The notes under the pieces: generated by a model
Database searches by the model: none
What the model saw: only the letters and a program-made list of their open reading frames with translations
What the model was told of the DNA's origin: nothing
DNA from: Lama guanicoe
Taxonomy: Eukaryota
Assembly: GCA_013239625.1 (NCBI GenBank)
Contig: MU053873.1
Span: 2,618,524 to 2,682,523 of the forward strand
Length of the DNA: 64,000 bases
Direction of reading: 5' to 3'
In this document: one piece after another, positions 3,691-64,000 of the stretch
Numbering within the stretch: position 1 is the stretch's first letter
Layout of the letters: every line of letters begins with the position of its first letter
Translations under genes and position numbers: made by a program

Positions 3691-6039
3691 AATTATTCCC
3701 CACTTTGTTTTCAGTTAAAACACTAAACATGGAGAGAGAGAGAGACTGAGAGAATGAAGGTCATCTTTCCTGCCCCCTGTTTAAACAAATCTCAAGTCTT
3801 TCAGCTTTTCATCTATGACCTCTCATTTCTGATCTGTAAAACGGGTGCATAGGTATTACCTTCCTTGCTTTGTTAAAGACCTCCAACTGTGACCTTCAAC
3901 CGTGACCTTGCCACTTGCGAGCTGTGGCGCTCTGGGCAAGGCTGCTCGCTTCTCTGAGCTCCAGTCTCCTCACCTGTAGGATAGATGTCAAGCTCCTTCC
4001 CCGTTACCTCGCCTCCTCACTGTGGAAAGTACTCAGGCACAGCGGAGGTGGAAGGTCTGTGCTGCTGTGAGTGATGCTTTTGCCGGGATTCTGGCTGTGC
4101 CTCCTCTGAGGACTCGAGCTACTTCCAAAGCACCCCCTCAAGCTTCATCACCGTTTTATCCTCTTAATAGCCCTCTAAGGTAGCCATCACGGCCTGCATG
4201 CCTGCAACTCAATCTGGGCTCCGGTCTCAGCATCGTCACCCCCTCAGTAGGCAACTAAGCTCCCTGCTGAGCCTCAGTTTTCCTCATCTGTAAAATGGGG
4301 CCAATCATCTCCCCCTGGCAGAATCACTGCAACGGGTTTGCGGGCACATACTAGGTGGTCGTGTTCTCTCTTCCTGGTCTTTGGGGGCGGGCCAAGGTTA
4401 CAGAGCACTTTACTGGGGTATCTGGGTCTTGAACCCAAAGTCCCCAAGGCCCAGTCTCATGCTCTCTGACCACTGAAGAAGGTATTGCTCTGCATTTCTG
4501 CCGAGTGTCCCAGGGAAATACCTCCACTGTAATTCCTTGGGTTTGAGGCAAATATTAAAGTTGCTGACAGCCTGCCTGTAGTCGTGACGATTTGTAATAT
4601 TGATGAATCAGGAGCCGGGCCTGGCGCGGGCTGTGGGTTCAAGTGCCCAGAACATTCATGTGCTCTGTGGCCACGCCCTGACCACACCATTTCCCTTTAC
4701 AGTGTGCTTATTCTATTGCACGTCACTTGTTCCAACGTGAACGTCCAATGCCTCCCACACATCCCAGCCTGGGCAGACAGCTCTCCTGCCTAGAACTAGA
4801 TTTCAGGCCCCAGTGAGGACGGTGGGGCTGCCACAGGTGCACAGGGACATCAGGGGACAAATAAAGGACTGGCACGCCCACCAACATCTAGAAGGAGACA
4901 GCCTTCACTCTCCAGGCAGAGGTGAGCATCTTCTAGTTCAAGCCAATTGAACAAAGCAACATTTTGCTAACCCCTACCCACAAGACCTGACCTGGACATT
5001 TTGGGAACCAGGGACATCTTTCTCAATAAATAGCTTCTCCCCAGAGCGACACAGCCGACTCGTCCTTGCGCCCTTGGAAAAGCTTGTCTGTTAGATGATC
5101 TGAGTTGCCGGGTGCTTTTCTGGTTAAACATTTATACTGCAGCTTTTGTGAATAAATAGATCCATACATGTGTCTGCATGATTAGGATTAAATATTAAGA
5201 AGATGCACAGGCAGGGAACTGGTCGGCTTGAATGAGATGAAACTTGGGAGGCGCAAATGTCAGATCTGAGTGGGGCTGAAGGGGCTGTGATTAAGAGCAT
5301 GGAGGCTGACCTGTGGCTGGCCGGGTCCTGGGATGCCCAGGTGGAAAGCAGCCCTAATGTGGCTGAATCTTTTCTCTTGTCTCCTTCTTTTCATCTCTTT
5401 CCTCCTTCTCCTTAATCCCAGGCAAAGCTGGCATCGGTGGCCTTCCCTTCCAGCGCTTGCTGCCCCACTCCAAATCTGACTGCATTTTACAATTTTATTC
5501 GATTAGGTTTTACGAGCTGACTTGCTCGACGTGGCGCAAGTTGCCGGATGTGTCAGAGGCCTGGCAGAGACTTGAATTGAAATGATTCTAATTACATGTG
5601 ATAATTTTTGCATTCTAACATAAACCAATGTTACCCCCCAAAAAAAAAATCCCATTACAATGGTTAAAAGACAAATCATTTAGCAAGTCTCTTTCTTTAT
5701 TACTTTACGAGACAATTTACAAGGCAACATTTTGAACGCTGGGATCGGGTGATGGCCCAAGGCTATCCAACTGTAAGTTGCACTAAGAAAAAGGGAGTTC
5801 ATCTCTTGTCATTAGTCAGAAAGTCAAATGCAATCAAGGGGACTCCATTTGGCTTGTCAAATTAGCCACTGTTTCAAGTCATTAGCATGGCAGAGCATCG
5901 CAGACAAGGAGAGGAGGCCCCTAGCTCCGGAAAGAAGCAGTCAGCTGCCACCCATGACGTTTGAGATCACCTCCTCCAAGCAGCCTCCAAAGATCCCAGA
6001 TCCCTTCCCTGCGGCGCCCCTGCTGGAGGAAGGAGTCCA

Positions 6040-12426: not shown

Positions 12427-13154
12427 TCCATCTTCAGCAAACCCCAGAGCTCCGTGACCTCAGCGTAAAGACTTCCCAGCTCCAAGCCTCGGTTTCCTCT
12501 TCTGTGAAATGGGATAATAACCCACAGTACCTTACATGAAAATCAAGGAGAGAGTGGCTGGGGTCCAGCACACAGTAGGTGCTCACCCTGCAGGTGGTTC
12601 CTCCCCGAGTGGGAGGCAACTGGGGTCTCCCAGACAGAGGTGCACTGCATGAGGTCCAGCCTGGACTGGGCGGCGGGACTCTGGACAGAGGAGGATGCTC
12701 ATTGCCCGTGACATAATTTAGATGGATGGCTCGGGCCATCCGTCAGGCTGGGAGCGGGCGGCCCAGGAAGAAGCCGTGGGGGAGCCCATTACGGTACACG
12801 TGTTAACAGCGCATCCTTTGTACCAACAGCCGCGCGGCGCGGGCAAGGGCCGCTCCCCGCATTGTCTGGGCGCTGCGGCCCTGCCGTGATGAATGGGCTG
12901 CCCGTGCCCAGGTACCACAGGCTGAGGGTGACACTGCGTGGCGGCGCTGGGAACTGCAGGCCACCTGGCCCAGAGCAGAGGTCGCTGAGAGCAGCAAGGC
13001 TGCCTTCATTCAGTGCTCAAGAGATATCGTATGTAAAGTACTTAGCACAGAACCTGGCACATAGCAGGTCCTCAAGAAATACAGATGACAATCAGCATCA
13101 TCTTTATTTTCAGGGGAAAAATACAGGCGCAGCCAAGTTCAAAACCTGGGTCGA

Positions 13155-15490: not shown

Positions 15491-16929
15491 TTCCCACAGC
15501 ACTAAATACAAACCCCTCTGCCTCCCCTCTCCTCCGAGGCTAGTATGACCCCACTAGTCCCGGCCACTTGCCTTATCCAGAATCTTCCTGGACCCCCAAC
15601 TCTACACTCGCTCTCTCTCTGCCTACATCTTCCACCCAGACACACTAACCTTGGCCTTCAGCAGAGCAAACAGTCCCAGATCTGGATGAGACAGACCCAG
15701 CTCCAAATCCAGCCTCTGCAGCCTCTGGACAAGCTGAACCAGGCCATGACCTCTCTAAGACCCAGCTGGCTCCTCTGTAAAATGGGAATAATCATAGTGT
15801 CCACCGCACCAAGTTACTATAAGGTAAATGAGGGGTGTCTTGAAAGGGCCTGGCCCTGACACCTGTGGTTTTCTTGCCTCCTTCCAAGAAGCATGCCGCC
15901 TCCTGCAGGCAGCCCTCCCTCTCTTCTCCAGCCCTCAGAAGCACTTCCTGTTTGCGAGGCCCCCAGGTAGCATGGGCAGGAAGTAGCTGGAAGATGAGAA
16001 ACGTGTCTCCCCACAGCAATCAGAAACCATTTGGGATCAGAGACTGCGAGTCTTTCCCAACAGAGCCTAGGGAGTCTGCCGGGGAAAAGGACATCTCATG
16101 ATGCGGGGGAGATGGACAGACAGACAAACCGAAAGGTTCTGAGGAGCTAAGCGAGGGTCCCGGTGAACGTCAGGACTTCAGCTATTTATTTTCTGGGAAA
16201 ACCGCCCTCCTTGGAGCCAGACTGGTAAGCAGGCCGCCAGCGCGTACAGGGCACCGGGGGCGGGCTGATGCCTTCGCCGTGACCGCTCCCCGCGGCGGCC
16301 TCCGCGAGCGGACGGATGGGGCTCCTCAGCAGGAGAGGGGCTGCGCCTGAGGCCACTCCACCCCGGCAGAGGGTACCACATGCCCACCACTCCACCCAAA
16401 TGGCCTCCGGGTCAGAGCTCAGCCTACCTTCCTCCATCTCAGCGTGGCCGGGAAGTAGGGGCTCCCGGGCATGCGCGATGCGGGGCTGGGGGTGGGGGGA
16501 AGAAGAACAGACCCACCGGGGGCCCCCAGGGCGCCTGGAACCCACAATGCAGTGGGCTGGCCATCATTGCTGCCCTGATGCTGGTCGCCTCTCCCAGGTG
16601 TCTCCCTCCAGGGCACCTCAGACTCCTGATCCGGTCTGGGCCTCAGCCTCTCCATCTACATAATAATGATGTATAACCCTCAGCAATAATGACTCCCACC
16701 TACCCGACTCCCAAAGTGAAGAATCTGGCAGGAACATCAATGATCATCGATAATCAATAGTTACCAGGAGCTCCCACTTAGCTCCAGGCGGGTTACCTAG
16801 AAACGCCCCATCCTTATTTCACGATAGTCACTTGTCTAAATCCCTGTAGCCAGTGAGCAGCAATTAAATGAAACAGCCCCCAGGCAGTTCCCTCTTAGAA
16901 GGGGCCAGCACTGTTCCGCTTTAAAACAA

Positions 16930-32310: not shown

Positions 32311-32799
32311 AGGGAAGAGGAACCACCTCTTGAAAGCACATGCACTTGAGCCAGTGTCTAGGTATGAATGCTGGCTCTGCCACTTGCTAGCTGTGTGACC
32401 TTGGGCAAGTTGCTTAGCCTCTCTGTGCCACAATTTGTCATCTGTGAAACATTGTCATAGAGTGGCTAGGAGATTCTAAGTGTGTCAGTGTTTGTATTTA
32501 GAACACTACCTCGGATATCATGAATATTCTTCACATGTTTCACATTTTTTAAATACATAAAGGAAGAAAGGAACAAAAAGATAAACCAACTTATTTCACA
32601 GGTGGGGAAACTGAGGCCAGGATAGGAAGGACTTGCCACATCTGAGTTATTATCAGAGCTGTTGGGCTCTTTCCAAAGATGGCACAGGGTGAGGCTGGCA
32701 CCAGAGAATCCGGTCCCAGCCTGTTGTGATGACTCAGATGCAGAGACGCACAGTGGAGGTGGCAGGAGACCCATGAGCAAACACACAGTGTGACCCAGG

Positions 32800-33460
32800 G
32801 ACCCACCGAGACTTCTCCGTGGGAGCCGCTCCCCCACCCCCGTCCCTGCCCTCACACGCCCCGAACGTGCCGCTCCAAGACACGGGCCAGATGGATTCCA
32901 GAGAGTTCTAAACGTGCCCCTCTCCATCTCGCCATTTAAGAATTACTAGGGATCTCCAGGCTGTACGCGGAGGAACAAGAAATACTACCAGGCCTGGGCG
33001 GAAACCTAATGAGAAACCGAACATGGCCAGACAGAAGCTTAGCAAGAAATACTGACCCGGGCTCCCAAGAAGAACTGCGGGCCCCGGAGATCGGGCGGGC
33101 GGGCTGCCATCTCCCCCCACGGATCGATCGCGCGCAAGGCTGCCGACCGCGGGGAAGTAGATAAACGGGAAGATATACGACAGGAGGGACCCAGGGCTGA
33201 TGAAAGGGGAAGAGAAGGCAGCTTAAATCAAGGGGCAAGTGCTGCGAGAGAGAGGAGATAACACGATTTGTGCTTATGGTTAGCAGGGAGAATCGGTCGA
33301 GGAGCGGGCGCCACGAGGCAGGGGAGCACTCGGGGAGGACGGCGGGGAGGGGCCGGGGGGAGTGCGCGGTGCTCCCGGGGAATCATGGGTGCTCTGGGAG
33401 GCGAGCCGGAAACAAGTGACTAAACCGGCAAAATCGCTCCTGGCCCGTTTGGTTGTGGCC
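32800..33460. promoter_or_regulatory. Orphan CpG island
   Basis: Dense CpG (gatcgatcgcgcgc, ggcgggcggg GC boxes, gccggaaac) against a CpG-poor background. Confidence 0.75.
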
Positions 33461-35509
33461 CCAACTGCCTTTTAACCTCTGCCCTTTTTTTCCCAGCTTT
33501 CCTGGGCCTCCCTGAGGGCGCTAAAAACTGCCCACAGTTGCCACCTCCTCCCACAGTGGGCACCATCAGGACAGAATTCAAAGCCCACGTCGGGGTGATG
33601 TGGACAACAGTGAACGCTTACAGGGAACGTCCTTGGTGCCTGTGGCTGAGCTCGGAGACTCCTATGTCTTATTCCAGCAGACAGTCACTCAGGACTGAGG
33701 CACCAGGGTTGTTCCCATTGTACAGAGGAAGAAACTGAGGCTCATGGAAACTAAGGAACTGCCTCCAACATGGTAGAGTGGCTCTGGATCTCCAGACTAG
33801 GCAAGTCTGGCTCCAGAGCCCACCTGCTTAGAATCCCAACCGTGATTCTAAATGGACTGGATTGCCATCCACAGTAGCTGGGGGATGAGCTCAGAGGGAC
33901 ATTTCTGCACACAGCTCCTCAGAGGAAGGCTCACAGGGTGGAGCCCCGCTGCCCAGTGAGATAACCAGTGCCCTACAGTGGGCCCTCCCGCATGCTTCCT
34001 GCACTTCCTTCCAACTAAACCTCAGAACCCAGACCCTTGTCTCAGGCTCTGCTTTGGGGGGGGCGGGGACCAGACTGAGACAGGACTCCATCTACCTTAA
34101 ATACAAGAAAATGTAAGAATCAGGACTGCCTAAGCCAAGCCAAGTCTGGGGGACTATATGAGGAAGGCGATTCCTCTCATGTTCTCCAAATGTGTTCTCC
34201 AGCCCAGAAAATAAGAACCCTGGCTGTCACCTTTTCTCGCCTCAGAGAAGTGCTGGGGGAAAGGCTTCCATCTTTCTTTTCACTCTTGACTTTTTGCCGA
34301 ACCTGCCGATGCATGCAAGCTCGTTATTCAGTGCAATGTGGAGGCTCATGTGAATGTTTAGAACTATTAACAACTTGTCTTGAAAGTACACTGAGAGCAA
34401 AACGGTCTTGAAAAACTCTTAAGACTTAGAAATGGTTGCCACATCTTGTAAAAACAACTTCCCAAGAGAATCATGGCTCACCTGATATCAGGCTGCCCTG
34501 GGAATGATGCTGCAGTGGGCATCTCTGTGTTCCCAACAGAACAAACCAGAGGCAGGTCATTGGCACTTTTCTCCCTCAAGATTGATGGAGGGGAAGGCTT
34601 ATAACTTTCACAGATTCTTCACTTTCAGCAAACAGACTAGGGAGTCTAGTTCTGTTTTAAAAAATGATTTTGAGTTGATGATTAGGGAAGGTGATCTCTG
34701 TAGAGGTGGCAAAATGCAGAAAACCTGAGACCCAAGGTTAAGAAGTCCAGCCATTAAGAGCAGGAAGGACAGCATTCCAGGCAGAGGGGACAGCACCTGC
34801 AAAGGCCCTGGGGCAGAAGCAAGCTTGGTGTAGTTGGGAGACCCAATGGAGTCAGTGGAACTGGAACAGAGAAGTGAGCAGAATGTACCCTCCGCTCAAG
34901 AGTTTGTGGAGTGTGTATTTTAGTCTCTAATGATGAGAGCCAATAAAAGGCTTCAAGCAGGGGAATGAGCTTTCAAAAAGCAGACCCAGAGACTGGCATG
35001 GGTGGAAGATCAGAATGCAAGATGGGTCAGTAGTGGTGCTGACATTTCATTCTGCTGTTCACTGGATGCATAACTGCAAAGCTTTGACCCCATCAGCTGG
35101 TGGTAGCTTAGCACAGACGAATTTGATTTTAAACTTCTCATAAAATCACTTGCATGCTACAAACAATCTGATTCCCCTGGTCCAACAGAATCAAAAAGAA
35201 AATAATTTATAAAGAAAAAAAATTACCTGTTCACACCTGAGAGACTTAGAGTTCAGAACTAGACTTCTTCTTGCCCTGAGCCCAAGGGGCATGCTGTCTG
35301 CTGCCTTCACAGAGTGAGAAAAAAAAAAAAAGGTGATCAGAGTTGGCTCTCCACAGGGGAACATCACTCTTTGCTGAAACTGTCAAAGAAATCACACATA
35401 TTTGGCAACTGCAATGCTGTCTGGGTAATGCCTGACACTCTGGGGGCCTGTATTCTCTCACCCTTCAAAGTCCAGTTTGCACTTACACATCCAGCTCACC
35501 CACACATGC

Positions 35510-42393: not shown

Positions 42394-42829
42394 CGCCCCT
42401 CACCTCTGTAAGTAGTACATTTACTAAACTAGGCTAATTTGAATCTGCCGTCTGTTTCCTATGGGACCCTGTAGGGTGCATTATTCAACTTCTCTCTGCC
42501 TCGGTTTCCTCCGCTGGAATAGGAGATAATGGTAACAAAGCTATTGCGAGGATGCAATAAGATGGTGCACGTATGATCAGGTGTGGCCGCTGTCTTGCTC
42601 TCTGTCCATCCCCTGCTCGACCCCTGCTCCACCTACACCCTACTCAGGTGGACGTGCCTGCCTCCTGCCACTGCCATTGATGCTTCTAATCCCTAGGCCA
42701 GAACGTCCCCACCTGCTAGTTTATCACAGGGAAGCATCTACCCTCGGGAAGCTCGTTAACCTGAGGGGCTGTGAGGGACGTGCCCAGCCCTGGTTCCCCC
42801 GGTAACAGATAAGCCCACCTGACGTCTTC

Positions 42830-43700
42830 CCCCCTCTGAGGCCGCCTCCTCCCCGAGTGGGGCAGAGTCCTGTCGAGTCCTGTGCTGGCGGCCATACACG
42901 GTGGGGAGTCGCTCCAGGACCCCTTGTTTGGGGCGTGTAAGGCCCCCTGTCCGATAACCTCTGATGTCCCTGTCACTGTCTCCGGGCTCAAGGCTCGCGG
43001 CCCTGCCGGGCGCGGCCCAGCCGGCGGCCAGCCAGTCAGGAGGCGAGGAAACTCCCGCGAGAGCCGAGACTTCGGGGGAGGCAGGGCGGGAACCGGAAGT
43101 TGGGGTGTGGGGTCCCCAGGCGGTGTCCACCAGTGCGTGGGGGCTTGTGGCAGCGGAGCGCCACCAGAGGCGTCGTTTTCTTCCATGATGTCGAGGGCGT
43201 CCTGTTAACTCAGCGTGTGCTTCCAGGTTAAAGGCAGCAGCCCGGGCTCGTGGCCCTGCTGACGCCCGGGCCTGGCTGGTGGCCGCGGGCCGAGCGCAGG
43301 GGCCGGGCGTGTCTGTTCCGTGCTTGGCGGCTGCCTGGTCAGTGAGACAAGCCTGCCCCCCGCCCACCACCCCTAAACAACTGCAGACACGGGCTTTAGG
43401 GCTGTTACCTCGGGGACAAGCTTGTGACTTGGACGTGGCCTGTTAACCCGGAGGGGTTTGGTTGGGGCCTGCGGTGACGGCGGGATAACCAGAGTGCCCT
43501 TGGGCTCCGGGTCCCAGCGATGCGAGGGGCGGAGCAACGACACAGTGATGGGACCGCAGCTACACGCCGCCTACAACGCGGTGCAACAGGTGGGAGACCC
43601 ACAAAGGGCCAACAAGTCATCCGCCATAAACCACTATCGGGTCTAGAACAGCTGTGCGTGACCTGCGGGACCCCCGTGGGCATCCATAGTGACCAGTGGC
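42830..43700. promoter_or_regulatory. Orphan CpG island with GC box and ETS site (CCGGAAGT at 43093)
   Basis: High CpG density 42980-43330 tailing to ~43700; gggcgggaaccggaagtt. Confidence 0.75.
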
Positions 43701-43790
43701 CATGAAGTCCAGGAATGGGCCGACAGAAATGCCGTCCACTGGCTTTTCCTTACAACCCCACTGCTGCCGGGCTAGGAAGGGACTTAAACG
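43600..43790 (+). pseudogene. ERVL-class pol integrase remnant (frameshifted)
   Basis: Joined frames give ANKSSAI/GLEQLCVTCGTPVGIHSDQ/GHEVQEWADRNAVHW/PYNPTAAGL, resembling the class III ERV integrase core (GxPxxIxSDQG...VQEWA...HW...PYNPxAAGL). Confidence 0.7.
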
Positions 43791-45509
43791 CAACTGTCGT
43801 GGGAACCGGCTCTCAGCACGTGGGCTGGGAGGCTAACTCAAGACCCCGGCACCGTAACTGGCCATCCCAGGAGCAGTGGTCCCAGTGCCCCCGCCGCATT
43901 AGCCCAGAGGCAACCAGTCAACACCATCCGAGCTCAACTGTTGACCATCAAAGGATTGTTGACTTGCTTTTGCCCTTGACACGGGATCTACCCCCAGGGG
44001 AACACGTTATAAAATGGCCCTGAGACCGGCAGGTAAGTCCCCTGCTGTTTGGGTTTGCTGCCTTGTGGGGAATAAAATCAGAAATGGATTTACAGATCTC
44101 ACTTGTCTTCCACCTACCTAGGACTGCTGCGGTAGTTAACCCGGGCCCCTGCTGGAGAAAGGCACCACTGTAGTACCCTGTGGTCCGTCGTTACACCGCC
44201 TCTCCAGTATTGGGCACCGGCCGTGCGGACTGGGGCGGGCTGGCGGTGGGTTCTGCAGGCCAGGACAGAGCCACAGGCGGGGGTGATGGGAGCTCCGAGC
44301 GCTGCTTCTGCTTGTCTCGTGCTTAATGGCCATGATCTTCTCAGCCTTGTGCCTGTGTGTGTGTGTGTCAAACATCTTACATTTCATCCTGAGTCTGAGT
44401 GGAGGGAATCTGTTTGCAGTTGAGGTAACAAATGTAGCCTCCCTGTGAGATGGATCTGACTGCTGAGTCTGCTGCGAGAGGCCGTGGTCGTCCTCTGAAC
44501 TTCCTTGAAAAGTTGACCCGTTAAGCGCCTGGCTTCCTCTTGGCTCTTTAGCGGCTGGTGTCTGTATTGCATCTGTGGTATTTGGTTGCAGGGCTGAGTG
44601 GACTGGACTCTGACCAGACCCCCTTTCCTCAACACCCAGCAGAATCTTCCGGGTCTCCAGTCTCCTGCCCTGTTGTCACACCCGCCAAAAGTCAAAGCTC
44701 CAAATGTGGGTGGTCCAGTCTCTTCCAGATGCCCAAGTGCCTTTGAGATGAATATACCACCCTTCATGGTCTAATTATTTTGACTGAAGATTAGTGGGAT
44801 CTTACTGCTCCTGGGGGGTACAGATCCATTGTGAATGGTTTATGCATGCTGAATTTAACCCAGTTTCCAACACAAGAGCTCCCTCCACAGAGAAGCCCGT
44901 TTCAGTTGCCTCGGCACCGCTCTCTTCAGTGCCCTGGGGCTAAGGCAGGGGTCCAGCAAGGGGAAACTTCTTAGCCAGTTCTCTCAGGAGGGGGCTTATA
45001 CCTGGGAACCGGTTAAGAGGCTAAGATGGGGACCACAGGAATTTCCCAATCTTCCTGGACTCCTGAATATCTCTGTTGCTACCTGCAGGTCTGGATACCT
45101 GGTCCTAGCTGTGCTTATTTCCCTGTTGCCATCCATTCCCCACTAGGAAATCTGCTGTGGGACTCCCAGCACAATCTAGATGTGCATATTAAAGGCAGTT
45201 GGATACACACACATCCCTAGCCCAGTGCTGGGAGACAGAAACCACTGAGAGCCTCAGCAGGTCACGCACCTCGGTCCTCTGGGATTTCCCCTTGGCAGAG
45301 CCTCTTGGGGAAGATCTGGTTTTGCACTTTTCCTAACATGCAGGTGCAGATGCTGGAATGGCACTCAGGGAAGCCACCAATGAGATGGCCGGAGGCTGGA
45401 GGTGGGGCTGTCTGAGGGGTTCCTGAACTGGGCAGAGGGTCATGTCTCTTGTTCAGAGATGACTTTAGGAGACATTCATTTAGTCAGGCTCTGTTTGGGG
45501 GGATATTGT

Positions 45510-53397: not shown

Positions 53398-55645
53398 TAC
53401 CCAGTTGTAGTGACTTTAAAGGTCATGGTCTTGAGCAGAGACTGGGAGAGCCTCCTCCTGTGCCACTGGTTCCCCCCTCCCCCAAATTACGCATCCCTCT
53501 GCCTCCTAAACTACAGCCATTCCTTGGGTGTGAATTGGTTTCTAATTTCAAAATGGTAGTTTAAACAAGAGAAGCTGCATTCATGGGTGAAAAGACAATG
53601 CTCAGTTCACACTCCATGGCCGGATCCGTGTAAAAATATTTTTAATCTACAGCAGAATTTCCATCCCTGGGAGGCAAGGACATGGAAAATGTCTTCTGCA
53701 GTCTGTTAAAGTAAAACAGTGGGTCGCTGGATAAACTCTCAAGAGGGCCTTCAGGGTCTTTGGTTGGAATGGAACCAGTCTCCCCTGCCAGGCATCCCCC
53801 CAGCTCAATATGTCCCCATCTACTCAAGCACAGCCCTCAGGCAGGGACCACAGTGGCCCCTCCCTCCATGCTGCCTATTAAAAGACTGAACTGCCTCTTT
53901 CTACCGGGAGGCCGGCTTCCCAGCCCATGAGGTCCTGCTCCTAATGACTTGATGTTCAGTGGCGTCAAGGCCAGGGTGAGCATCAGCAGGCCTGGGGCCA
54001 GGGTTAGGGGGAGGAGAGTTGCCTACACAGGTAAGAGTCAAGAACACGAAAACACACACACACACACACACAGAATCTGAGACTCCCACCACCATCATCA
54101 GTCTCAAAGGTGGGCGAGTCCCATTCCTTCTGCCTCCAGAAGGTTCGTTATCCAACAAGACACATTTTTGCCTTCCTGGGGCCAGGACCAGCCTCTCAGA
54201 AGCTCTCCGTGCCTGCATGGCCCCCTTGCAGCCATACAGGACTCCGAGGCTTCCTCTCTAGTAAGATTCTCATGTAGACTTCCAGCCCATGCCCACGTGC
54301 CCTCGGATGTCTTCCTGGAGCGGAGCATCACCAGGGGACTGGAGTGATGTGCTTTTCAGTCGGCCCTTCTCCCAAGACATTGCTGTCACCTGCCTGGCAG
54401 GAACACGGCCCCCTCTGCTTTCCAGTCATTGCATAACTACCTCCAACCGGGGAAAGCGTTTCTAGGTCTTATTTCTCTTAAGATGGACCTAAGGATGGTC
54501 CTCCTTTCAAGAGGTTCTAACCAGTTTTCTAAAATTTGACCAGAACGTAATATAAGCAGGACTCAGAAATGTTTCTGAGCCTCTTGCTTTGTGTGCAGTG
54601 GAGCAAGGTGGCCACAAGAGGGCAACAGGCACCTGCTTCCCTGATGCAGGCCCCATCCCCGCCTCGCCAGCAGCCAAGCCACCTCCTCCAAGCTCTTCTT
54701 GATGCATCACCTCTTCTTGCCTTTGCAGCTCAGGCCTCTGGATCACCCCTTCAGGCCTCACCGCCAGTTCCACTAGATTGGCTCTGAGTCCCTGGCTGAC
54801 AGTGAGGCTCTCAACCCCAGAGCAGTATTCAATGACCTGAGCCACCTGCCTACAAGGCCACTAGGCAGGCCTCTGACCCTGCCCCTGAGCGGATCCAATC
54901 CTCCAGGCCCTGCCATGAGCTGTCCTCACCCACAGACCCTTACTACCAGACTAAGCCAGTAAAACTGGTCCCTCTTCCCACCCTCCTCGACCTGGTACCC
55001 CCTCTTACCCACACCCAGGAATCCCTAGCCTCCTAGCTTCTCCTCTCTGCTCCCAAAGGATCCTCCCCCAGCCTTGCAGAGATCAAAACTCCCTTCCGGC
55101 CAAACTCTCATCTCAGGGCAGCTAAATTGCATAGAAATTAGAAGAGGAAGCTGATCTAATTTATACCAACGTGTAAATGGGTGATAGATTTATAACCCTT
55201 CTGACTATCTCAATCTAAAGTTTTATGTCCTAGGGCTTCCAAAACTCGAAAGTCCCTAAATCAAGGACTCTAGGCCCTGGCCTGGTGACTGATGAGTCCA
55301 TACATAAAGGCATATCCTCTGTACACACCAGACAGGCATAGGCATTTTTAGGGCTACAAAAGCTGCGTCCACGTGTTTGGACTATTACAACTATCAGGCT
55401 ATTATTTAAAAGAACCAAAACACAGATGCAGATTATAAGGGGTTAATAGGCTATGTCCTGTGGCAAAACCTTGAAAGTTGACTATGCTTCTGAGCCCACC
55501 CCGGCAGACACCACTCCTCCATTTGGCCTGAGCCTCACCCCAGTCCCGGCACCTCCTTTAGAGTACTGAGATCTTTACTGGCTTCACATGGCTCTTCCCC
55601 AGAGCAGTCACCACGTCCGACACCACTACCTCCACCTCTGCCTGT

Positions 55646-55976
55646 GTTAGTTAAGTCCAAACCTGTGTTAGCCCAGTCCCAGCCATGCCGATATCCAAGC
55701 TGTTAATAGTAATTGTTACGAGGAGTGTTAGACCTGTTGTTAGTCAGAAAGAAATCCACAAGCCGTTAGTTTCTGCTGAAAGGAACAGATCAGGAGGGCA
55801 GGAGTTAGTCAGGTGAAGGAGAGGTTAATTAAGAGCAGGTCAGAGCCAGGCCAGGAGCCTGGAGCCCCCAGATGGGCAAGGTTGGCTGTTAGTGGTCAGC
55901 CCCCCTGGGGCAGCCAGGGCAGGCGGGGATTAGCTGGGTGAGAGCAAGAGTTAGTGCAAGGGAGCCAGAGATTAGC
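55646..55976 (-). repeat. Second cluster of ACUAAC/CUAAY motifs
   Basis: GTTAGT at 55646, 55739, 55765, 55804, 55888, 55950; GTTAGC 55667; GTTAGA 55727; ATTAGC 55929 and 55971. Confidence 0.92.
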
Positions 55977-56254
55977 CCAAAGAGACCAAGGTGCCTACTG
56001 GAGGTGAGGCATAAAATCACCCCCAGGTGTGGCCCTGGCTTAGCGGCTGGCGGGCTCTGGGGGAGGCACACTGGGGTCGGGCCGTGGGTGCGAAGAGGAC
56101 AAGAAGCCAGGGATGAATTTCTGGCTGGCCTGAGGGGCTGTGGGACCCTGTGGGCCCCTAGGGTTCATTTGTTGCTTCCCACTTCTTCCCCCTGCCAATC
56201 CTGAACCCAAGATCTGCTTTCTTCCCAGCTTTCTCAGATTTCCTGGTGTAGACA

Positions 56255-56700
56255 GTCCTTCTCAATGACTTCCAGTGGGAAAAATGACTCACACCTACTT
56301 CCAGTGTGGGAAACCTGGATCTCCCACCTCTGGGGATGGGGAGGGCTCTAGCCAACTTCCTGTTGTAGGAAAGGCCCCTCTCACTGATCTCCTGGCCATT
56401 CCTTCTCACCGTCTGGTGATAAGGCGAAATCCCCCTCTCACTGACTTCCGGTTTAAGAAAAACCCTTCTTCCCGTCCCTCAAATAGGAGAAATGCCCCCT
56501 CACACTGACTTCCTGAACTAACTACTCAGTGATTCCCAGTGTGGTTAAGACCCTTTCAGTGACTTCCAACTGGGGAAGTCTCCACTAGCTGACTTCCGGT
56601 GTGGGACACGCCCTTTGCTGACTTCCGGTGTGGGACGCCCCCCCCTCATTGATTGCCTGTGCGGCACCAAGCCTCTACCGGCCACTTTCCAGTGGAGAGG
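56255..56700. repeat. Degenerate ~30-bp tandem array with TGACTTCC(G/T)G core (ETS-like CCGGAAGT on the minus strand)
   Basis: ACTTCC at 56268, 56297, 56355, 56444, 56508, 56562, 56592, 56621, with variant cores near 56387, 56532, 56652, 56684; spacings mostly ~29-32 bp or about double. Confidence 0.85.
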
Positions 56701-57120
56701 ATTCTACCCTTGCTTCCGTCCAAAGAAAGCCACACGGGTGCCTTCTCTGCTCCCTTAGCTGGGAAGAGCCCTGTGCTCCACATCCTAGACCCACAGGCCT
56801 CCCCACAGTCACACCCCAGAGGTTTCCCGGCTCCCGCCCACTCCCAGTAGCAACCAGACTTCTGTGCAGAGGTGAGATGCTGTGCTCAGAGGCCAGCCAG
56901 CCTCCCATATCTCCAGGACCACCTCTTCCTCTGGGCCGCTGGTGTGGATAATAGGGCCGTCCATCCCCTGCCTCAGACGTGGCCCAGTGGACTCTGAACT
57001 CACAGCCAATTGGGGCTGCAAAGTGGGGCATCTGTCTCTGCCAGGCCAGCCCCAGGACCTCTGCTTGCCAGAAGGAGGGGGACCAGCCCCCAGGGGCGCC
57101 CAGAGCTCGGCAGGGCTGGG

Positions 57121-57928
57121 GTTAGTAAGAAGAGAAAACAGGGTTAGTAGGGGCTGGGTTAGTAAGTCAGAGCACAGCACCAGCGGACAGGGGCACCTCA
57201 GCAGACACACACGGGAGGCACTAGGAGAAAAGAAGAACGCACACAGGTCCATTAGTTCGTTAAGGGGTGGTCGGGGTGCAGTTGAGGCCCCCCTGGGGTT
57301 AGATGGGTTAGTAATTGAACAAAAGAGCTGCCTACGGGAAGGAAGCTGAGGAGGAAGTGTGGGGAAGAGATGGTTAGGGGTTCAAAGCGAGTGTCTGGCC
57401 CCAGGCAGAGGGGTCTGTGTGCAGACCACCCAGAGGGACCAGGGCCTGCCCTGGGACATGAGCGGGCAGGTTTTCCGAGTCTCCCACCCCCACCCTCATG
57501 CATATCCAGATGTGTATTCAGTATCTGCCCTCTGTCAAAAGCTTCATCTTCCTGGGAATCCTCACTGCAACGTGTGGGTGAGGATCAGGCCACTCACTCT
57601 GCTGCTGAGGAAACCGGGGTTCAGAGAGGGCAAGTGACTGGCTCAAGTCACCCGGCGGGAAGTGGCAGAGCTGGCGAGTCCGATTTGCATGCCCTGTCCT
57701 GCAGTGTGGGTCTGCACAGAGCTCCCAGGCCTCGGGCAGGGCCTTCCGGAGCCTCGTCTGCCCCCACATCCCAGCCCCTTGAAAGGCCCGTGAGCTGCAA
57801 GGTTAGTAGGGTCTGGCCGCGGGGGGTTAGTAGGGCATGCTCGGGCCTGGTTAGTGGGTTAGTCGGTTGGCAGAAGGCCAGGCACCTCGTCACACGCCAC
57901 AGCGTCCCGGCCGAGCCCTGGGTTAGTA
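57121..57928 (-). repeat. Cluster of 7 perfect UACUAAC motifs (consensus YTACTAACC) plus CACTAAC (57850), GACTAAC (57858) and ACTAAT (57251)
   Basis: Read directly as GTTAGTA on the plus strand at 57121, 57143, 57158, 57307, 57802, 57826 and 57922. Confidence 0.97.
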
Positions 57929-59699
57929 GGTTAATCACACCATGCAACACTGCCCCCAGCCCCTCCAGCTGCAGCTCCAGAGGCCTCCCGCCCCCAACCA
58001 GCCAGGGAGCTGGGCCTGACCAGGGCAGGGGGTCTGCCTCCAAGCTCCTCAGCCCCACCCGAGAATCAAAGCTATCCACGTAGACCCGGCCCCCATAAAT
58101 TTTTCTTCCCTACTTCTCAGCCATGGGTCTCCGGGGCGCTTCCCCAGACACTTCAGTTCCCCTGAAAATGGACGCTGCTCCTTCCAGCTGGAAACCCCCT
58201 GCCTGGTTCTGGTCATCCCCTTCCCGGAAGGCTGGATCCTGTCACACTCAGGTGCACGCACACACTCGTACACACACCAGCATATTCCCACAAGAGGTCT
58301 GAGGCCCCGGAGCCACTGTGTCCAGTGGACAGCTCCTCCATCACCAACCGCCAAACCTGTGGCTACTCCAGCCCCTGGCCTGCCCTCCCCGCAACACTGA
58401 AACTGCATAGAGCTCGCCTGACCCCCGGCACCAAGTTCACACTTCCTGGCCCCAGGGAAAGGGCTGCCTTTCCAGCCGATGCTGCGAAGCAGCTGAGTGT
58501 GCCCTAGTTTTGTCATCTTTTATCACAGTTGCAGTTTTCCCACAGAAACCGCAGCCTAGGATCCAGTAATTCCAACTGATGCTCTGGAAGAAAAGGGTTC
58601 TGTTGCCGGTAAACTTTGGGAGGTAAACACTTAATCCTGTATCTGTCCTTGAATATTCACAATACCCAGCAGCACTTTTAAAGGCTCTGATAAGTCCTGC
58701 ACTGCAGAAACCTACCGAATTTGAACTTTTTTTCTTTTTTTTTTTATAAGAGCAATGACATTTCCTAGAACTTACTTTGGGGCTATCTGCACTCATTTCT
58801 CCCTGAGGCTCTCAGCTAAGCCACCTCTTTCTCATCCTCCAAGGTCCTGATTAGTTCAGCCTTGCTGGGAAGTCTTTCCAGCCTCCTCCGGGATCTTACT
58901 CCCACACACTCAAGCACTTAGAACCTGTGCCTCAGTAGACTGCTTCCTGCTCCATCCTCCAGTTCTCTGTGTGAGCTGGTTTTCTCCCACTCAGCATGGC
59001 TGTGCAACCCTGAAGGTTTGAATCAGGGCCGTAACTTCAATTATATTCCCCTCAAGTGAGTCACACAGGGAAGGGCTCACATTAGGTGCTCAATCCTGAT
59101 GAGAAGAGTAGATAATAAATTCCCCAGGAAGCATTTGGAGCTACTAGGGAGGCCATGCAGTGCCACCGATTCCTCGATCTGATTAGGGAGAGATATTAAG
59201 AATACAAGAGGGGGAGGACTAGTCAGAAATGCCTCTGGATCAAAGATGCTGGGCTTACCGCCCAGGGGGCTCGGAATAGATGTAAACTACACGTAAACTC
59301 CCAGAGGAGCGTTAATTGAGCACCTACTAAGAGTCAGTCGCTGTGCCAGACACGTGATTTCACTGATTTTTCCCTGTGCCCCTACGGTGAGCAGATGGCT
59401 CATTTCAGAGCAGAAATCAGACTCACAGGGGTGAGGTGACTGGGTGGTACAGCAAAATGCACACCCTCTGGCTCCAAAGCCCAAGATCTTCCCAAGACAC
59501 CCCTCTCTCGGGAGCTCCTCCTCGCTGCACTGGGTCTGGCCGGTTCTGTGTCTCCCCAAGGCACCCGGGGCCACCCTAGCACGTTACCCCCCAATACTGT
59601 CTCTATTACCCATACCTCTGCCCCTCCACCCCCTCCCTTTTGGGGGCAGGAATTCTAAAGGGGCGATGACACCAGCTTTCCATGCTTGTGGTGACCACC

Positions 59700-60092
59700 T
59701 ACTATGGACTGAATTGTGTCCCCTCCAAATTCATAGGTTGAAGCTATAACTCCCAACATGACTGTGTTTGGAGATAGGCCTTTTAAGGAGATAATTAAGG
59801 CTAAATGAGGTCATAAGGATGGGACCCTGATCCCATAGGACTGGTGTCCTTATAGGAAGAGGAAGAGACACCAGCTAGCTAGCTATTTCTCTCCCTCTCT
59901 CTTCCTCCCTCCCCCTCTGTGTGTGTGTGTGTGTGTTTCTACCTGTGAGCCAAGGAGAGAAGCCTCACCAGAAACCATCCCTGGCCCCTTGGTTTTGTAC
60001 CTTCAGCCCCCAGAACTGTGAGAAAATCCATTTCTGCCAGTTCAGCCCTCCACGCATGGTATTCCGTTAATGGCAGCCCAAGCTGACTCACC
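59700..60092 (+). mobile_element. MLT1A-like LTR with internal (CT)/(GT)n expansion
   Basis: tatggactgaattgtgtcccctccaaattcat...tttggagatagg...ccagaactgtgagaaaat...atggcagcccaagctgact. Confidence 0.88.
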
Positions 60093-63000
60093 CAGGTCCC
60101 CTCCCCACCCCCAGAAAAGGACACTGGGCTCCTAGACTTGCCTAAGGAAGGCCACAGCTGCTCCTGTGCGAGCACTGGGACCGGCCCCTCTTAAGGAGCT
60201 GGAGGGAGTGAACAGGGAGGCAGGCAGGCCAGTGAGCCCGCAGCCGCAGCCGCAGCCACGTGATGGGGGAGCTGCCTGATGTGTGTGGAGCCTGACACTG
60301 CTCCCCAAGGGCAGGAGTGTGACAAGGAGCAGGAGTCTGAGATACGGCTGGGGTGATCCCTCAAGCCTTGGGGTGAGGCTGATTCCAGACCATTCCCTTT
60401 GGAAGGCGAGAGCAAGGCTCAGCGTCTGTCTCCTTCTGGCGAGCCTCCCCAGCCTGGGTCTCCTCATCCCCTGGAAACTCTCTCCGTCCAGGATAGCTCT
60501 ACCCCTCCAGCTGCCCCTCCCAGAGCTCCACAACTCAAGGGGAAGGCCCAGGCTGCCCCCCACCCCGGTCACCATCCGGGAGAGCAGAAGCGCAGGAAAG
60601 CCCCATCCAAGAAGCCCCCACAAGAATGAGCGTCACTCACTCACACAGCCAACGGCACAGGGCAGACCCAGCCGGCGGCGCCCCGGGAGCTGCGTCCACC
60701 CTCCCTCCCACTGGCAGCTCCTCTTTGACACCCAGTCCTGTGATCCTGCCCCTGTCCTATAAGGTCCTTTAAGACCCAGCCTTGGCGAGGTGTGGTCAGT
60801 CAGGCCCTGGCCCAGGCTGAGCTCTGGTCTCCAGCAGGGCTGCCAAGAGAAATCAGGTCCACTCGGGGTCAGGAAGGGCCTCCAGGCCTGGACAGAGGGC
60901 CCAGCAGGCAGGTCCAGACAGACGCAGCGGGGACGGTGGGCTGCCGGCCTCCCTCACATCCCTCGAGCTGTCCTCCAGAGCCAGGTCCTGATCTCAGCTG
61001 AGAACCATCCCAGAGGGGCCTGTACCCATGGCAGGCTCCATCCCAGGAGTCAGGAAGGATGAGGTCTTCAGGGAATTGTCCAGGGTTCCAGTATTGTCCA
61101 GAAGGCCGCTTCCTGTGTCACCATGGCCAGAGTCTAGGGTCACCCGGGCTCCAAAGAGAAGACCTGGTCAGGAGTCCTGAGATGCAGCCAGGGCAGAGCC
61201 GCCTGGAGGGGGCACAGCAGTCTAGAATAAGAGCACAGCCTCCATCCCCCAGCTCCCCACAGCCCAGCCCCACACCCGGGGGGTGGGCACCTTCAAAGAC
61301 GCCCAGTCTCCCTCCTGTGCCACCAGCACTTAGACAGGGTGCGGTGAGGGCTTGGATGCTAGTAACACGTAAAGAGGATGCCCCACCTGGACAGGGCTGT
61401 CACAGGGGATAGAAAAGCAACAAGCCCAGGGTCAGCCCCGCGGGCGTCACAGGCAGACAGGGAGAGTCCAGGTGGGCAGGAAAGGCCTTCACAGCCTCCC
61501 AGCTGAGGGGCCCTCTGTACCACCCTCCCCCAATACACACACACACACACACACGTGCACACCTCCCAGGACGGGGAGCTCATCTCCTCACTGAGACGAT
61601 GACAGAGCATGTTCTTACCTGAAGATCAGAGAGGGCGGAACCACATCTCATGTTGCCCTCTGGGGCCTCAGCATCTCGCTGGGAGAAGGCGCTTGGTCCA
61701 CGTTTGTGCTGAATGAAGGAATGGGCTGAAATCTCTGCCAGGAACCCACCCGGAGTGGTCTTGATTCAGTCCCACCCCCTCCACCGAGACCACACAGAAC
61801 AAGCCTTCCAGCCCCTCGACTCCAGACAGGAGTGTTTGGGCCAGGTCTGGGTACCTGGGGAAGGCCCTGGGTGGGGAGACAGTTATCCCCAAAGAAACTC
61901 AGCCTAATGGAACCCCCTTGCTCCACACCTACCCAGGCTTACCTGGCAGCGCCCAGCCAACACTTTGGCAGCCCGAGCTCAGCTCCCAGCTCCTCCCCCA
62001 CGTAGACCCCCGCAGGCCCATCCTGGAAGACAAAGGAGCCAACCACGGCGCAGGAGAAAACCGCGCCCAGGCCCCCTCTCCATCCCGGGCCGGGCCAGAA
62101 CTCTGCTGACAGGAAGGCCCCAGGAGCTAGGGAGGCTGGGCCCAGACACACCGGCCCCCCACCTCCCTTCCTCCCACCCCCGAAAACCCTCCTTGGCCTT
62201 TGCCCACCTCCCTGTTGCCCGCCAACCACAGAATGTGACCCCTGGAGAAGGCAGGACAGACTCAGCTTGACGACAGTTCAAGTGAGCACTGAACAGAGCC
62301 AGCATCCAGAGCTCTGATCCCAGCCCTGCCATCCTGTGCAGTCCTGGGAATCCGGCCCTCTCTCTGGGCCACAGGGCCCTTCTGGTCCTGACACTCACCC
62401 ACGGCGCACGGTAACAACCCCGAGTCTGAGGCCCTTCCACTCAGACTCAGTTACCTTTCTGCCCCGCGCCCCCGTCCCCCTCCCCATCTCTTTTCTGAGG
62501 CCCCAGGCACCAGAGGAAGCTTGCAGAGCCAGAGGGTGGGCTGGGACTCTTTGATGACCACCCCATGTTACCAGTCTGAGAAGACCAGAGAATGCCCACT
62601 CATCGTGACCCAGCATTGTCTCCCAGGGTTTGCTTTCAGTGACAGCTAAGCTCTGTTCATCAACTGGCAGACCTGGGCCTGGGAGTCAGGGGTCCTCTCA
62701 GCGTATTTTTAGAGCTTGCTGTCAGCTCCCGGACTTGGCTCACGGGTCCAGGGCTGGAGAGGTACTCAGACCCTTACACTGCCAAGCATGTGCCCGAGGG
62801 TCACGGTGCCAAGGTCCCCACTTGATTGCCACGCGAAGGGCCCCTAGCCAAGTTTGAGAAGATGTCAAAGGGCCAGAACTGAGAAGGGAAGGGCCAGCCC
62901 AAATCACCCGGAGTCCCCAGCCTCCTCCTGACACCGGATTTACAGGTACTCAAGATGAAGTCACTCAACTCAGGTCCTCAGAAGTTGCTGAGAGTGGAGT

Positions 63001-63719
63001 TTATAAAATTCTAGCCTTGATGCCAAAAGTGGGCTGTGAAAGTTACTTTCTGGGGCCCCAGAAAACGGAGACGAGCTCTTTGTGGCCTCAGAGGTAGGAA
63101 AGTGAGTGAGCCACATCGCTGATTTCTTCCCCCACCTTGGGGATTCTGGGATACTGGACTTTCCTGCACCGACCAGGAGAGGGCAGGCTGGTAGGCTGGG
63201 GGCTGGTACTTTTGAATACTTATCTGCAAGGCTCCTTCCCAGGGTGATCATGAACATCTCGAAGAACCCGGAAATTCCCTTCTTTCTCCTCTGTCCCAGG
63301 AACTTGCTGCAGTCTGTAAACAGACCGTGCACTGCTCAGAGCAGCACTGTTTGAATACAGTGACCCTCTCCCCTGGCCCTGGGGCCCCAGAATCCCTGAT
63401 ACGACAAAGGCAATGGAGATTTCAAGGGAAACTTTAGCTCCTGCATCAAGCTGACAGCTGTCTAGGAGGGTATCAAGGGCTTTGAGGTCAGACAAATATT
63501 GGTGAGACAGTGGCTTCCAAATCCAAGGTTAATCATTCTCAAAGGCTTAGCCCGTGCCTGGCACAGAGTTAGTGTTCCAATAATTATTTTCCCCAGTTAA
63601 TGATTTAAATCTTTGGGTAACACTGATGTCCCAGAAATGTGGGCCACATTTATCCTGCAGGATTCTATGCCTCCTGGGGCAGGGGGCTGTATATACCTCA
63701 CTTAGGAAGCACAGATCAA

Positions 63720-64000
63720 ATTTCAATCCTCTGTCTCGGTGAATGGATAAATAAGCGGGAGTACGTCATATAATGAAATCTACTCAGCAATGAAAAGGAG
63801 CACGCTATTGATAGATACTATGACAAGGACAAACTTCAAAAATATTACCTGGGGTGAAAGAAGCCAGGCACAAGAGACCACATGCTGTATGATTCCATTT
63901 ACACGAAACGTCCAGAAAAGGCCACCCTCTACAGACAGAAGGTAGATTTGCGGTTGCCAGGGATTAGGAGCAGGCTGGGGATTAACAGTAAATGGGGGTG
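63720..64000 (+). mobile_element. Old L1 fragment (runs off the window)
   Basis: gtgaatggataaataag...tactcagcaatgaaaagga...gaagccaggcacaaga...tgtatgattccattt. Confidence 0.85.

Follow-up and report, generated by a model that had tools for sequence, protein, structure and literature searches.

The window, by which we mean the whole 64-kb stretch of guanaco DNA analysed here, carries on its minus strand the conserved exon 5 regions of MIAT (Gomafu), a known and curated long non-coding RNA gene, and with them a cluster of perfect TACTAAC words. The positions of these and associated features are collected in Table 1. A scan of the whole window against Rfam returned three matches, all of them to MIAT families, all full length and all on the minus strand, and a scan of four stretches (40 kb) outside the window gave MIAT_exon1 as its sole match. 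Read 5' to 3' on the minus strand, the order is exon 1, region 1, region 2 and region 3. Six of the seven TACTAAC copies fall within regions 1 and 2, where the Rfam consensus carries the same word. The 881-bp region that holds the motifs is single-copy in the genome; nine other matches to it cover only about 70 nt of the query, namely a short dispersed-repeat fragment, putatively a MIR.

Table 1. Features of the guanaco MIAT locus and its surroundings (window numbering unless stated otherwise)
Feature	Position	Strand	Basis and remarks
MIAT_exon1 (RF01874)	L009:5360-5494 (69360-69494, window numbering continued)	-	139.5 bits, gathering 110; model 1-135 of 135
Upstream part of MIAT inside the window	57946-64000	-	Putative; position between exon 1 and region 1
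MIAT_exon5_1 (RF01875), conserved region 1	57801-57945	-	159.4 bits, gathering 100; model 1-146 of 146
TACTAAC in region 1	57922-57928, 57826-57832, 57802-57808	-	Word search; two further ACTAAC
Short dispersed-repeat fragment, SINE-like	57604-57674		Between regions 1 and 2; 9 other places, 79-89% identity
Fourth TACTAAC (57307-57313) and one ACTAAT (5' end 57256)	57251-57313	-	Outside the Rfam regions
MIAT_exon5_2 (RF01876), conserved region 2	57098-57182	-	108.7 bits, gathering 75; model 1-83 of 83
Three TACTAAC in 44 nt of region 2	57158-57164, 57143-57149, 57121-57127	-	Word search
5' ends of all TACTAAC	57928, 57832, 57808, 57313, 57164, 57149, 57127	-	Exact word search
GGAAGT-rich degenerate tandem repeat (some 16 units with a period of about 29 bp)	56225-56698	-	Autocorrelation peak at 29
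MIAT_exon5_3 (RF01877), conserved region 3	55678-56059	-	382.9 bits, gathering 90; model 1-382 of 382
ACTAAC in region 3 (five) and a sixth just downstream	Sixth at 55646-55651	-	Word search
Acceptor-like anatomy (motif, pyrimidine tract, YAG)	57221, 57116 (CAG after the three TACTAAC of region 2), 55934, 55776 (region 3)	-	Acceptor scan
Donor-like sites	57003 (GTGAGT), 55538	-	Scan
Candidate poly(A) signal ATTAAA	53641-53646	-	Nearest A(A/T)TAAA 3' of the motifs; use presumed
Crystallin exons (four)	Contig 2703262-2708257	-	Pfam Crystall matches
Crystallin exons (three)	Contig 2717179-2723816	+	Pfam Crystall matches

The gene is considerably larger than its motif-bearing part. The match to exon 1 lies about 5.4-5.5 kb past the right edge of the window, and 11,566 nt separate its start from the first motif. 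Exon 1 ends at a donor signal in the sequence (AG/GTAAG), and its surroundings are CpG-rich (GC 0.62-0.73, CpG observed/expected 0.60-0.78). A TATA-like, AT-rich word in otherwise GC-rich DNA at L009:5545-5556, some 50-60 nt 5' of the MIAT_exon1 match, may mark the start site of MIAT. At the other end, the candidate ATTAAA signal follows the last TACTAAC by 3475 nt, and a 3' end of the gene near 53630 is plausible, though unproven. An A-rich run on the minus strand (58727-58746), which precedes the first motif by about 800 nt, is a possible internal oligo-dT priming site. No Pfam match (E <= 0.01) was obtained for any of the 33 ATG-initiated open reading frames of at least 100 amino acids in the window, and no tRNA gene was found in it.

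The neighbourhood was assessed by a Pfam Crystall search, which gave 56 matches genome-wide, including two groups of exons past the right edge of the window (Table 1). One minus-strand exon was tested against the PDB: 39 of its 43 residues are identical to beta-crystallin A4, the best match (93.7 bits versus 72.5 for the next), a rank that does not by itself exclude the beta-A1/A3 and beta-A2 paralogues because the PDB matches listed held no chain of either. One plus-strand exon, which faces CRYBA4, is identical to beta-crystallin B1 in 39 of 42 residues, and the CRYBA4 call rests on exon identity together with this head-to-head position with CRYBB1. The distance from exon 1 to the last matched crystallin exon is 15.2 kb. 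From the crystallin matches and the tested A4 exon, the MIAT regions lie 3' of CRYBA4 and on the same strand. About 0.85 Mb to the left of the window, on the opposite strand, there is a PITP gene, taken as the marker for that side, the tested exon of which is closest, though narrowly, to the beta isoform (93.7 versus 91.4 bits); PITPNB, we assume, adjoins MN1 in human. Eight more crystallin exon matches (contig 3545381-3566912, minus strand) lie about 0.85 Mb to the right and probably represent two further beta-B crystallin genes.

The identification is thereby supported by two independent tests, Rfam homology and synteny with CRYBA4, and that the locus is the MIAT/Gomafu orthologue of this genome is practically certain. 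A preliminary description, made from the letters of the window, had proposed such an orthologue, with CRYBA4 past the right edge; the four Rfam families, all full length, above gathering, in order and on the minus strand, and the A4-like exons, with the locus on the 3' side of CRYBA4, bear out both proposals. The 810 bp that it had flagged do hold the motif cluster, but fall far short of the gene, since exon 1 lies 11.6 kb upstream of the first motif. Nor is the locus hard to detect, as a routine Rfam scan names MIAT.

The motif counts given in that description were reproduced throughout. By exact count, all seven TACTAAC of the window are on the minus strand, where they span 808 bp (the description had put them at about 810 bp), and the plus strand has none. 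For ACTAAC, the counts over 55646-57928 are 15 for the minus strand and one for the plus strand (at 56517). Each TACTAAC has a pyrimidine immediately before it and a C immediately after it (7 of 7 in both cases), and in six of the seven it is followed by CC. ACTAACC occurs nine times, on the same strand as the Rfam matches, and the 16 ACTAAY words are spread over 2.3 kb with spacings of 8 to 1171 nt. After dinucleotide shuffling of these regions (2000 replicates), TACTAAC was found 0.03 times on average (maximum 2, versus 7 observed) and ACTAAC 0.37 times (maximum 3, versus 15 observed), a significance that is overstated because the regions were picked after the motif had been seen. The adjoining 100 kb of the contig contain five TACTAAC, all scattered. 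A control that is independent of the choice of region was provided by close TACTAACC pairs, of which there are 38 in the 2.05-Gb genome: three are at the MIAT locus, and elsewhere they never occur more than once per place. Pairs of TACTAAC in close proximity are not rare in themselves (517 genome-wide versus 865 for the reversed control); the looser pattern is thus uninformative, and only the tighter TACTAACC pattern singles out the locus.

Could the cluster have arisen by chance or neutrally, as the remains of a decayed minisatellite, as a mobile element or as a coding repeat? The abundance of close TACTAAC pairs would favour this, as would one pair of copies with 17 of 19 nt in common (motif included) and the two open reading frames that overlap the cluster (237 amino acids on the plus strand, 147 on the minus strand). 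The flanks of the motifs, however, are at background identity (0.28 at 30 nt and 0.41 at 6 nt among the 21 TACTAAC pairs), and the region is single-copy. An origin by minisatellite or tandem duplication was rejected on the irregular spacings, the low flank identity and the absence of a TRF array over the cluster (none of the ten TRF rows for the window covers it), in agreement with the earlier remark that the spacers are unrelated. A coding explanation was likewise rejected, as the overlapping reading frames match nothing in Pfam. With six of the seven copies at consensus positions that hold the same word in Rfam, a chance or neutral cluster is hardly credible: it is refuted by the Rfam matches, including that to exon 1, and by the genome-wide TACTAACC control.

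Between regions 2 and 3, inside exon 5, lies a second repetitive element, the degenerate 29-bp array. Its identity to a repeated unit taken from the window is 73%, with a score of 383 compared to a maximum of 227 in 200 shuffles; it is single-copy in the genome and was missed by TRF. GGAAGT, presumably the ETS/GABPA core, occurs nine times in 500 bp at the array and at most three times elsewhere in 164 kb, and three of the five CCGGAAGT are within the array. The array is outside a CpG island (observed/expected 0.15-0.42) and may act as an internal promoter or enhancer. No description of it, and no paper on an internal MIAT promoter, surfaced among the results listed by our literature searches; human and mouse promoter annotations may already show the array. 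Elsewhere in the window, a CpG island is evident at 42701-43900 (GC 0.61-0.70, observed/expected 0.66-0.74), with no coding gene found in the window; it contains one CCGGAAGT at 43093 and a word near 43160-43175 that we regard as CTCF-like. Further CpG-rich patches are at 32701-33600 (observed/expected up to 0.88), 16001-16500 and 12601-13100.

The closest known counterparts of the guanaco locus, human MIAT (NR_003491) and mouse Gomafu/Miat/Rncr2 (AB300594), share with it the four Rfam regions, RF01874 to RF01877, in the same order. In human and mouse, and also in chicken, Gomafu is reported to sit 3' of CrybA4 (Tsuiji 2011, PMC3116199), and the same study counts expression in the nervous system and a spotted pattern of nuclear retention among the criteria of the family. 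There are seven TACTAAC in the guanaco, the number given for human MIAT, and six are given for mouse (PMC3116199); for ACTAACC, the nine guanaco copies compare with 5-8 reported for four species. The distance from exon 1 to exon 5 is also similar: the 11,566 nt to the first guanaco motif may be set beside human exon-5 SNPs listed at +11,132 to +12,350 from the start site (PMC9221589). According to PMC3116199, the mouse repeat oligonucleotide ends at position 5175 of the 8701-nt cDNA, 3526 nt from its end, close to the 3475 nt of the guanaco ATTAAA signal. The guanaco cluster spans 808 bp, compared to the approximately 590 nt deleted in the mouse construct (PMC3116199), and it contains the short dispersed-repeat fragment. 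Chicken cGomafu (AB570406) is described as having the syntenic position and the TACTAAC repeats in common with mammals, but only three repeats, a 3.3-kb RNA and low overall similarity (PMC3116199). None of the papers listed by our literature search is about MIAT in a camelid, as judged by title and opening of the abstract.

The repeated word is that of the intron branch point, UACUAAC (bound by SF1/BBP), and of the QKI element, ACUAAY. Unlike in intron branch points, it is repeated 16 times here, in sequence annotated as exon in human and mouse. The QKI element is bipartite, and a TAAY half-site lies within 20 nt of 14 of the 16 ACTAAY in the cluster versus 17 of 70 elsewhere, a comparison that is not independent of clustering because the neighbouring half-sites are often other motifs. 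The motifs are slightly more open than with shuffled flanks (unpaired 0.74 versus 0.68; higher for 11 of the 16), and the case for special accessibility is weak. Competition between SF1 and QKI for ACUAA branch points is reported (PMC11483029). Work on the mouse RNA is reported to show that the repeats pull down SF1, bind it better than degenerate mammalian branch points do, cross-link to it in cells, and delay the splicing of a weak intron in vitro, which extra SF1 rescues (PMC3116199). QKI binding to the MIAT repeats is cited in PMC9221589 and PMC4890022. A comparable mode of action, in the sense of working alike only, is that of the CUG-repeat DMPK RNA, which sequesters MBNL, an RNA with many sites that titrates a splicing factor in trans (PMC11483029). 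In the DMPK RNA, however, a true tandem repeat has expanded pathologically, whereas MIAT has some 16 conserved, spaced sites with unrelated spacers.

The explanation that we consider very probable is that of a single MIAT/Gomafu locus, the clustered UACUAAC/ACUAAC words of which likely bind SF1 and QKI in a transcript that is likely retained in the nucleus. Every step beyond the DNA sequence is carried over to the guanaco from mouse and human work. As in those species, transcription would start at the CpG-rich exon 1 and proceed toward lower coordinates, followed by splicing, and a large exon 5, possibly ending near 53630, would carry the motifs. With its optimal branch-point word, the RNA would be expected, as in mouse, to outbind ordinary mammalian branch points for SF1, and its repeats would delay the splicing of a weak intron in vitro. 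In cells, the RNA could lower the local free SF1 and QKI and thus shift a few weak splicing events. We consider it quite probable that the repeats bind SF1 and QKI; whether titration of these proteins is the main physiological role is an evenly balanced question. In accounts of the mouse RNA, the repeats are dispensable for nuclear retention (PMC3116199), and SF1 is mostly found without overlap with Gomafu RNA (PMC3116199; also PMC4255692). Knockout mice are described as developing normally with mild hyperactivity; of 146 predicted splicing changes, for which 27 primer pairs were designed, two events differed, and previously reported splicing targets were not recovered in that report (PMC4890022). 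A strong decoy role is therefore disfavoured, because retention is repeat-independent, the overlap with SF1 is low and the splicing changes in the knockout are few.

Some of the motifs could instead be working branch points for alternative 3' splice sites, in MIAT or in an overlapping transcript, and be conserved for their own splicing rather than as decoys. Such a reading is unlikely, but several observations are consistent with it. Using a crude rule devised for this analysis (pyrimidine tract and YAG at 17-45 nt downstream of a motif), four AGs behind motifs have acceptor-like anatomy, and three of the five acceptor-like sites of the ACTAAC type in 164 kb are at this locus; there is also the GTGAGT donor-like site, and mouse Gomafu is said to have more than 10 isoforms (PMC9221589). 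Exon 5 may thus be subject to alternative splicing. A preprint (PMC11483029) mentions 16 ACUAA within approximately 1000 nt of MIAT RNA, as against the 16 ACTAAY over 2.3 kb in the guanaco, where one spacing measures 1171 nt; the discrepancy could stem from splicing, from a difference between species or from imprecise wording. The enrichment in acceptor-like sites, however, is not significant under this crude rule (5 of 16 motifs inside versus 8 of 70 outside, p = 0.06). Such a site is absent behind all five motifs of region 1 and behind 11 of the 16 motifs overall, and region 2 has three in 44 nt where a single intron requires one branch point. Moreover, since the motifs remain in the mature human and mouse cDNAs, branch-point use would be limited to some isoforms. 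A combined use of exon 5, in which the 29-bp array would serve as an internal promoter or enhancer between the motif blocks, the words before the AGs at 57116, 55934 and 55776 would be real branch points, and alternative starts and splicing would set the number of SF1/QKI sites per isoform, strikes us as decidedly doubtful.

It is also conceivable, though quite improbable, that the locus is the MIAT orthologue but exerts its main effect through DNA elements or local transcription (neighbours such as CRYBB1 might, for example, be influenced by the CpG-rich promoter or by the GGAAGT array), and that protein binding to the motifs is minor. The densest GGAAGT cluster in 164 kb is indeed inside the exon, and the mild phenotype and few splicing changes of the mouse knockout would fit, as would the Crybb1 regulation cited in the same paper (PMC4890022). 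Yet the motifs are strictly strand-specific (15 versus 1), and they are the one feature shared with chicken despite the low overall similarity (PMC3116199); taken together, these properties agree better with selection on words in the RNA than with selection on sites in double-stranded DNA.

MIAT/Gomafu, its repeats and their binding to SF1 were already described in 2010-2011, and the locus thus offers little that is new as a discovery. Its use lies in annotation, in that a non-coding gene can be placed from about 5.5 kb past the right edge of the window to perhaps 53630. The GGAAGT array and the acceptor-like sites of exon 5 would be of modest importance should they alter how many binding sites each isoform carries. 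With its seven TACTAAC, the guanaco is a further mammal that shares the human number, and this agreement supports selection acting on the words as such.
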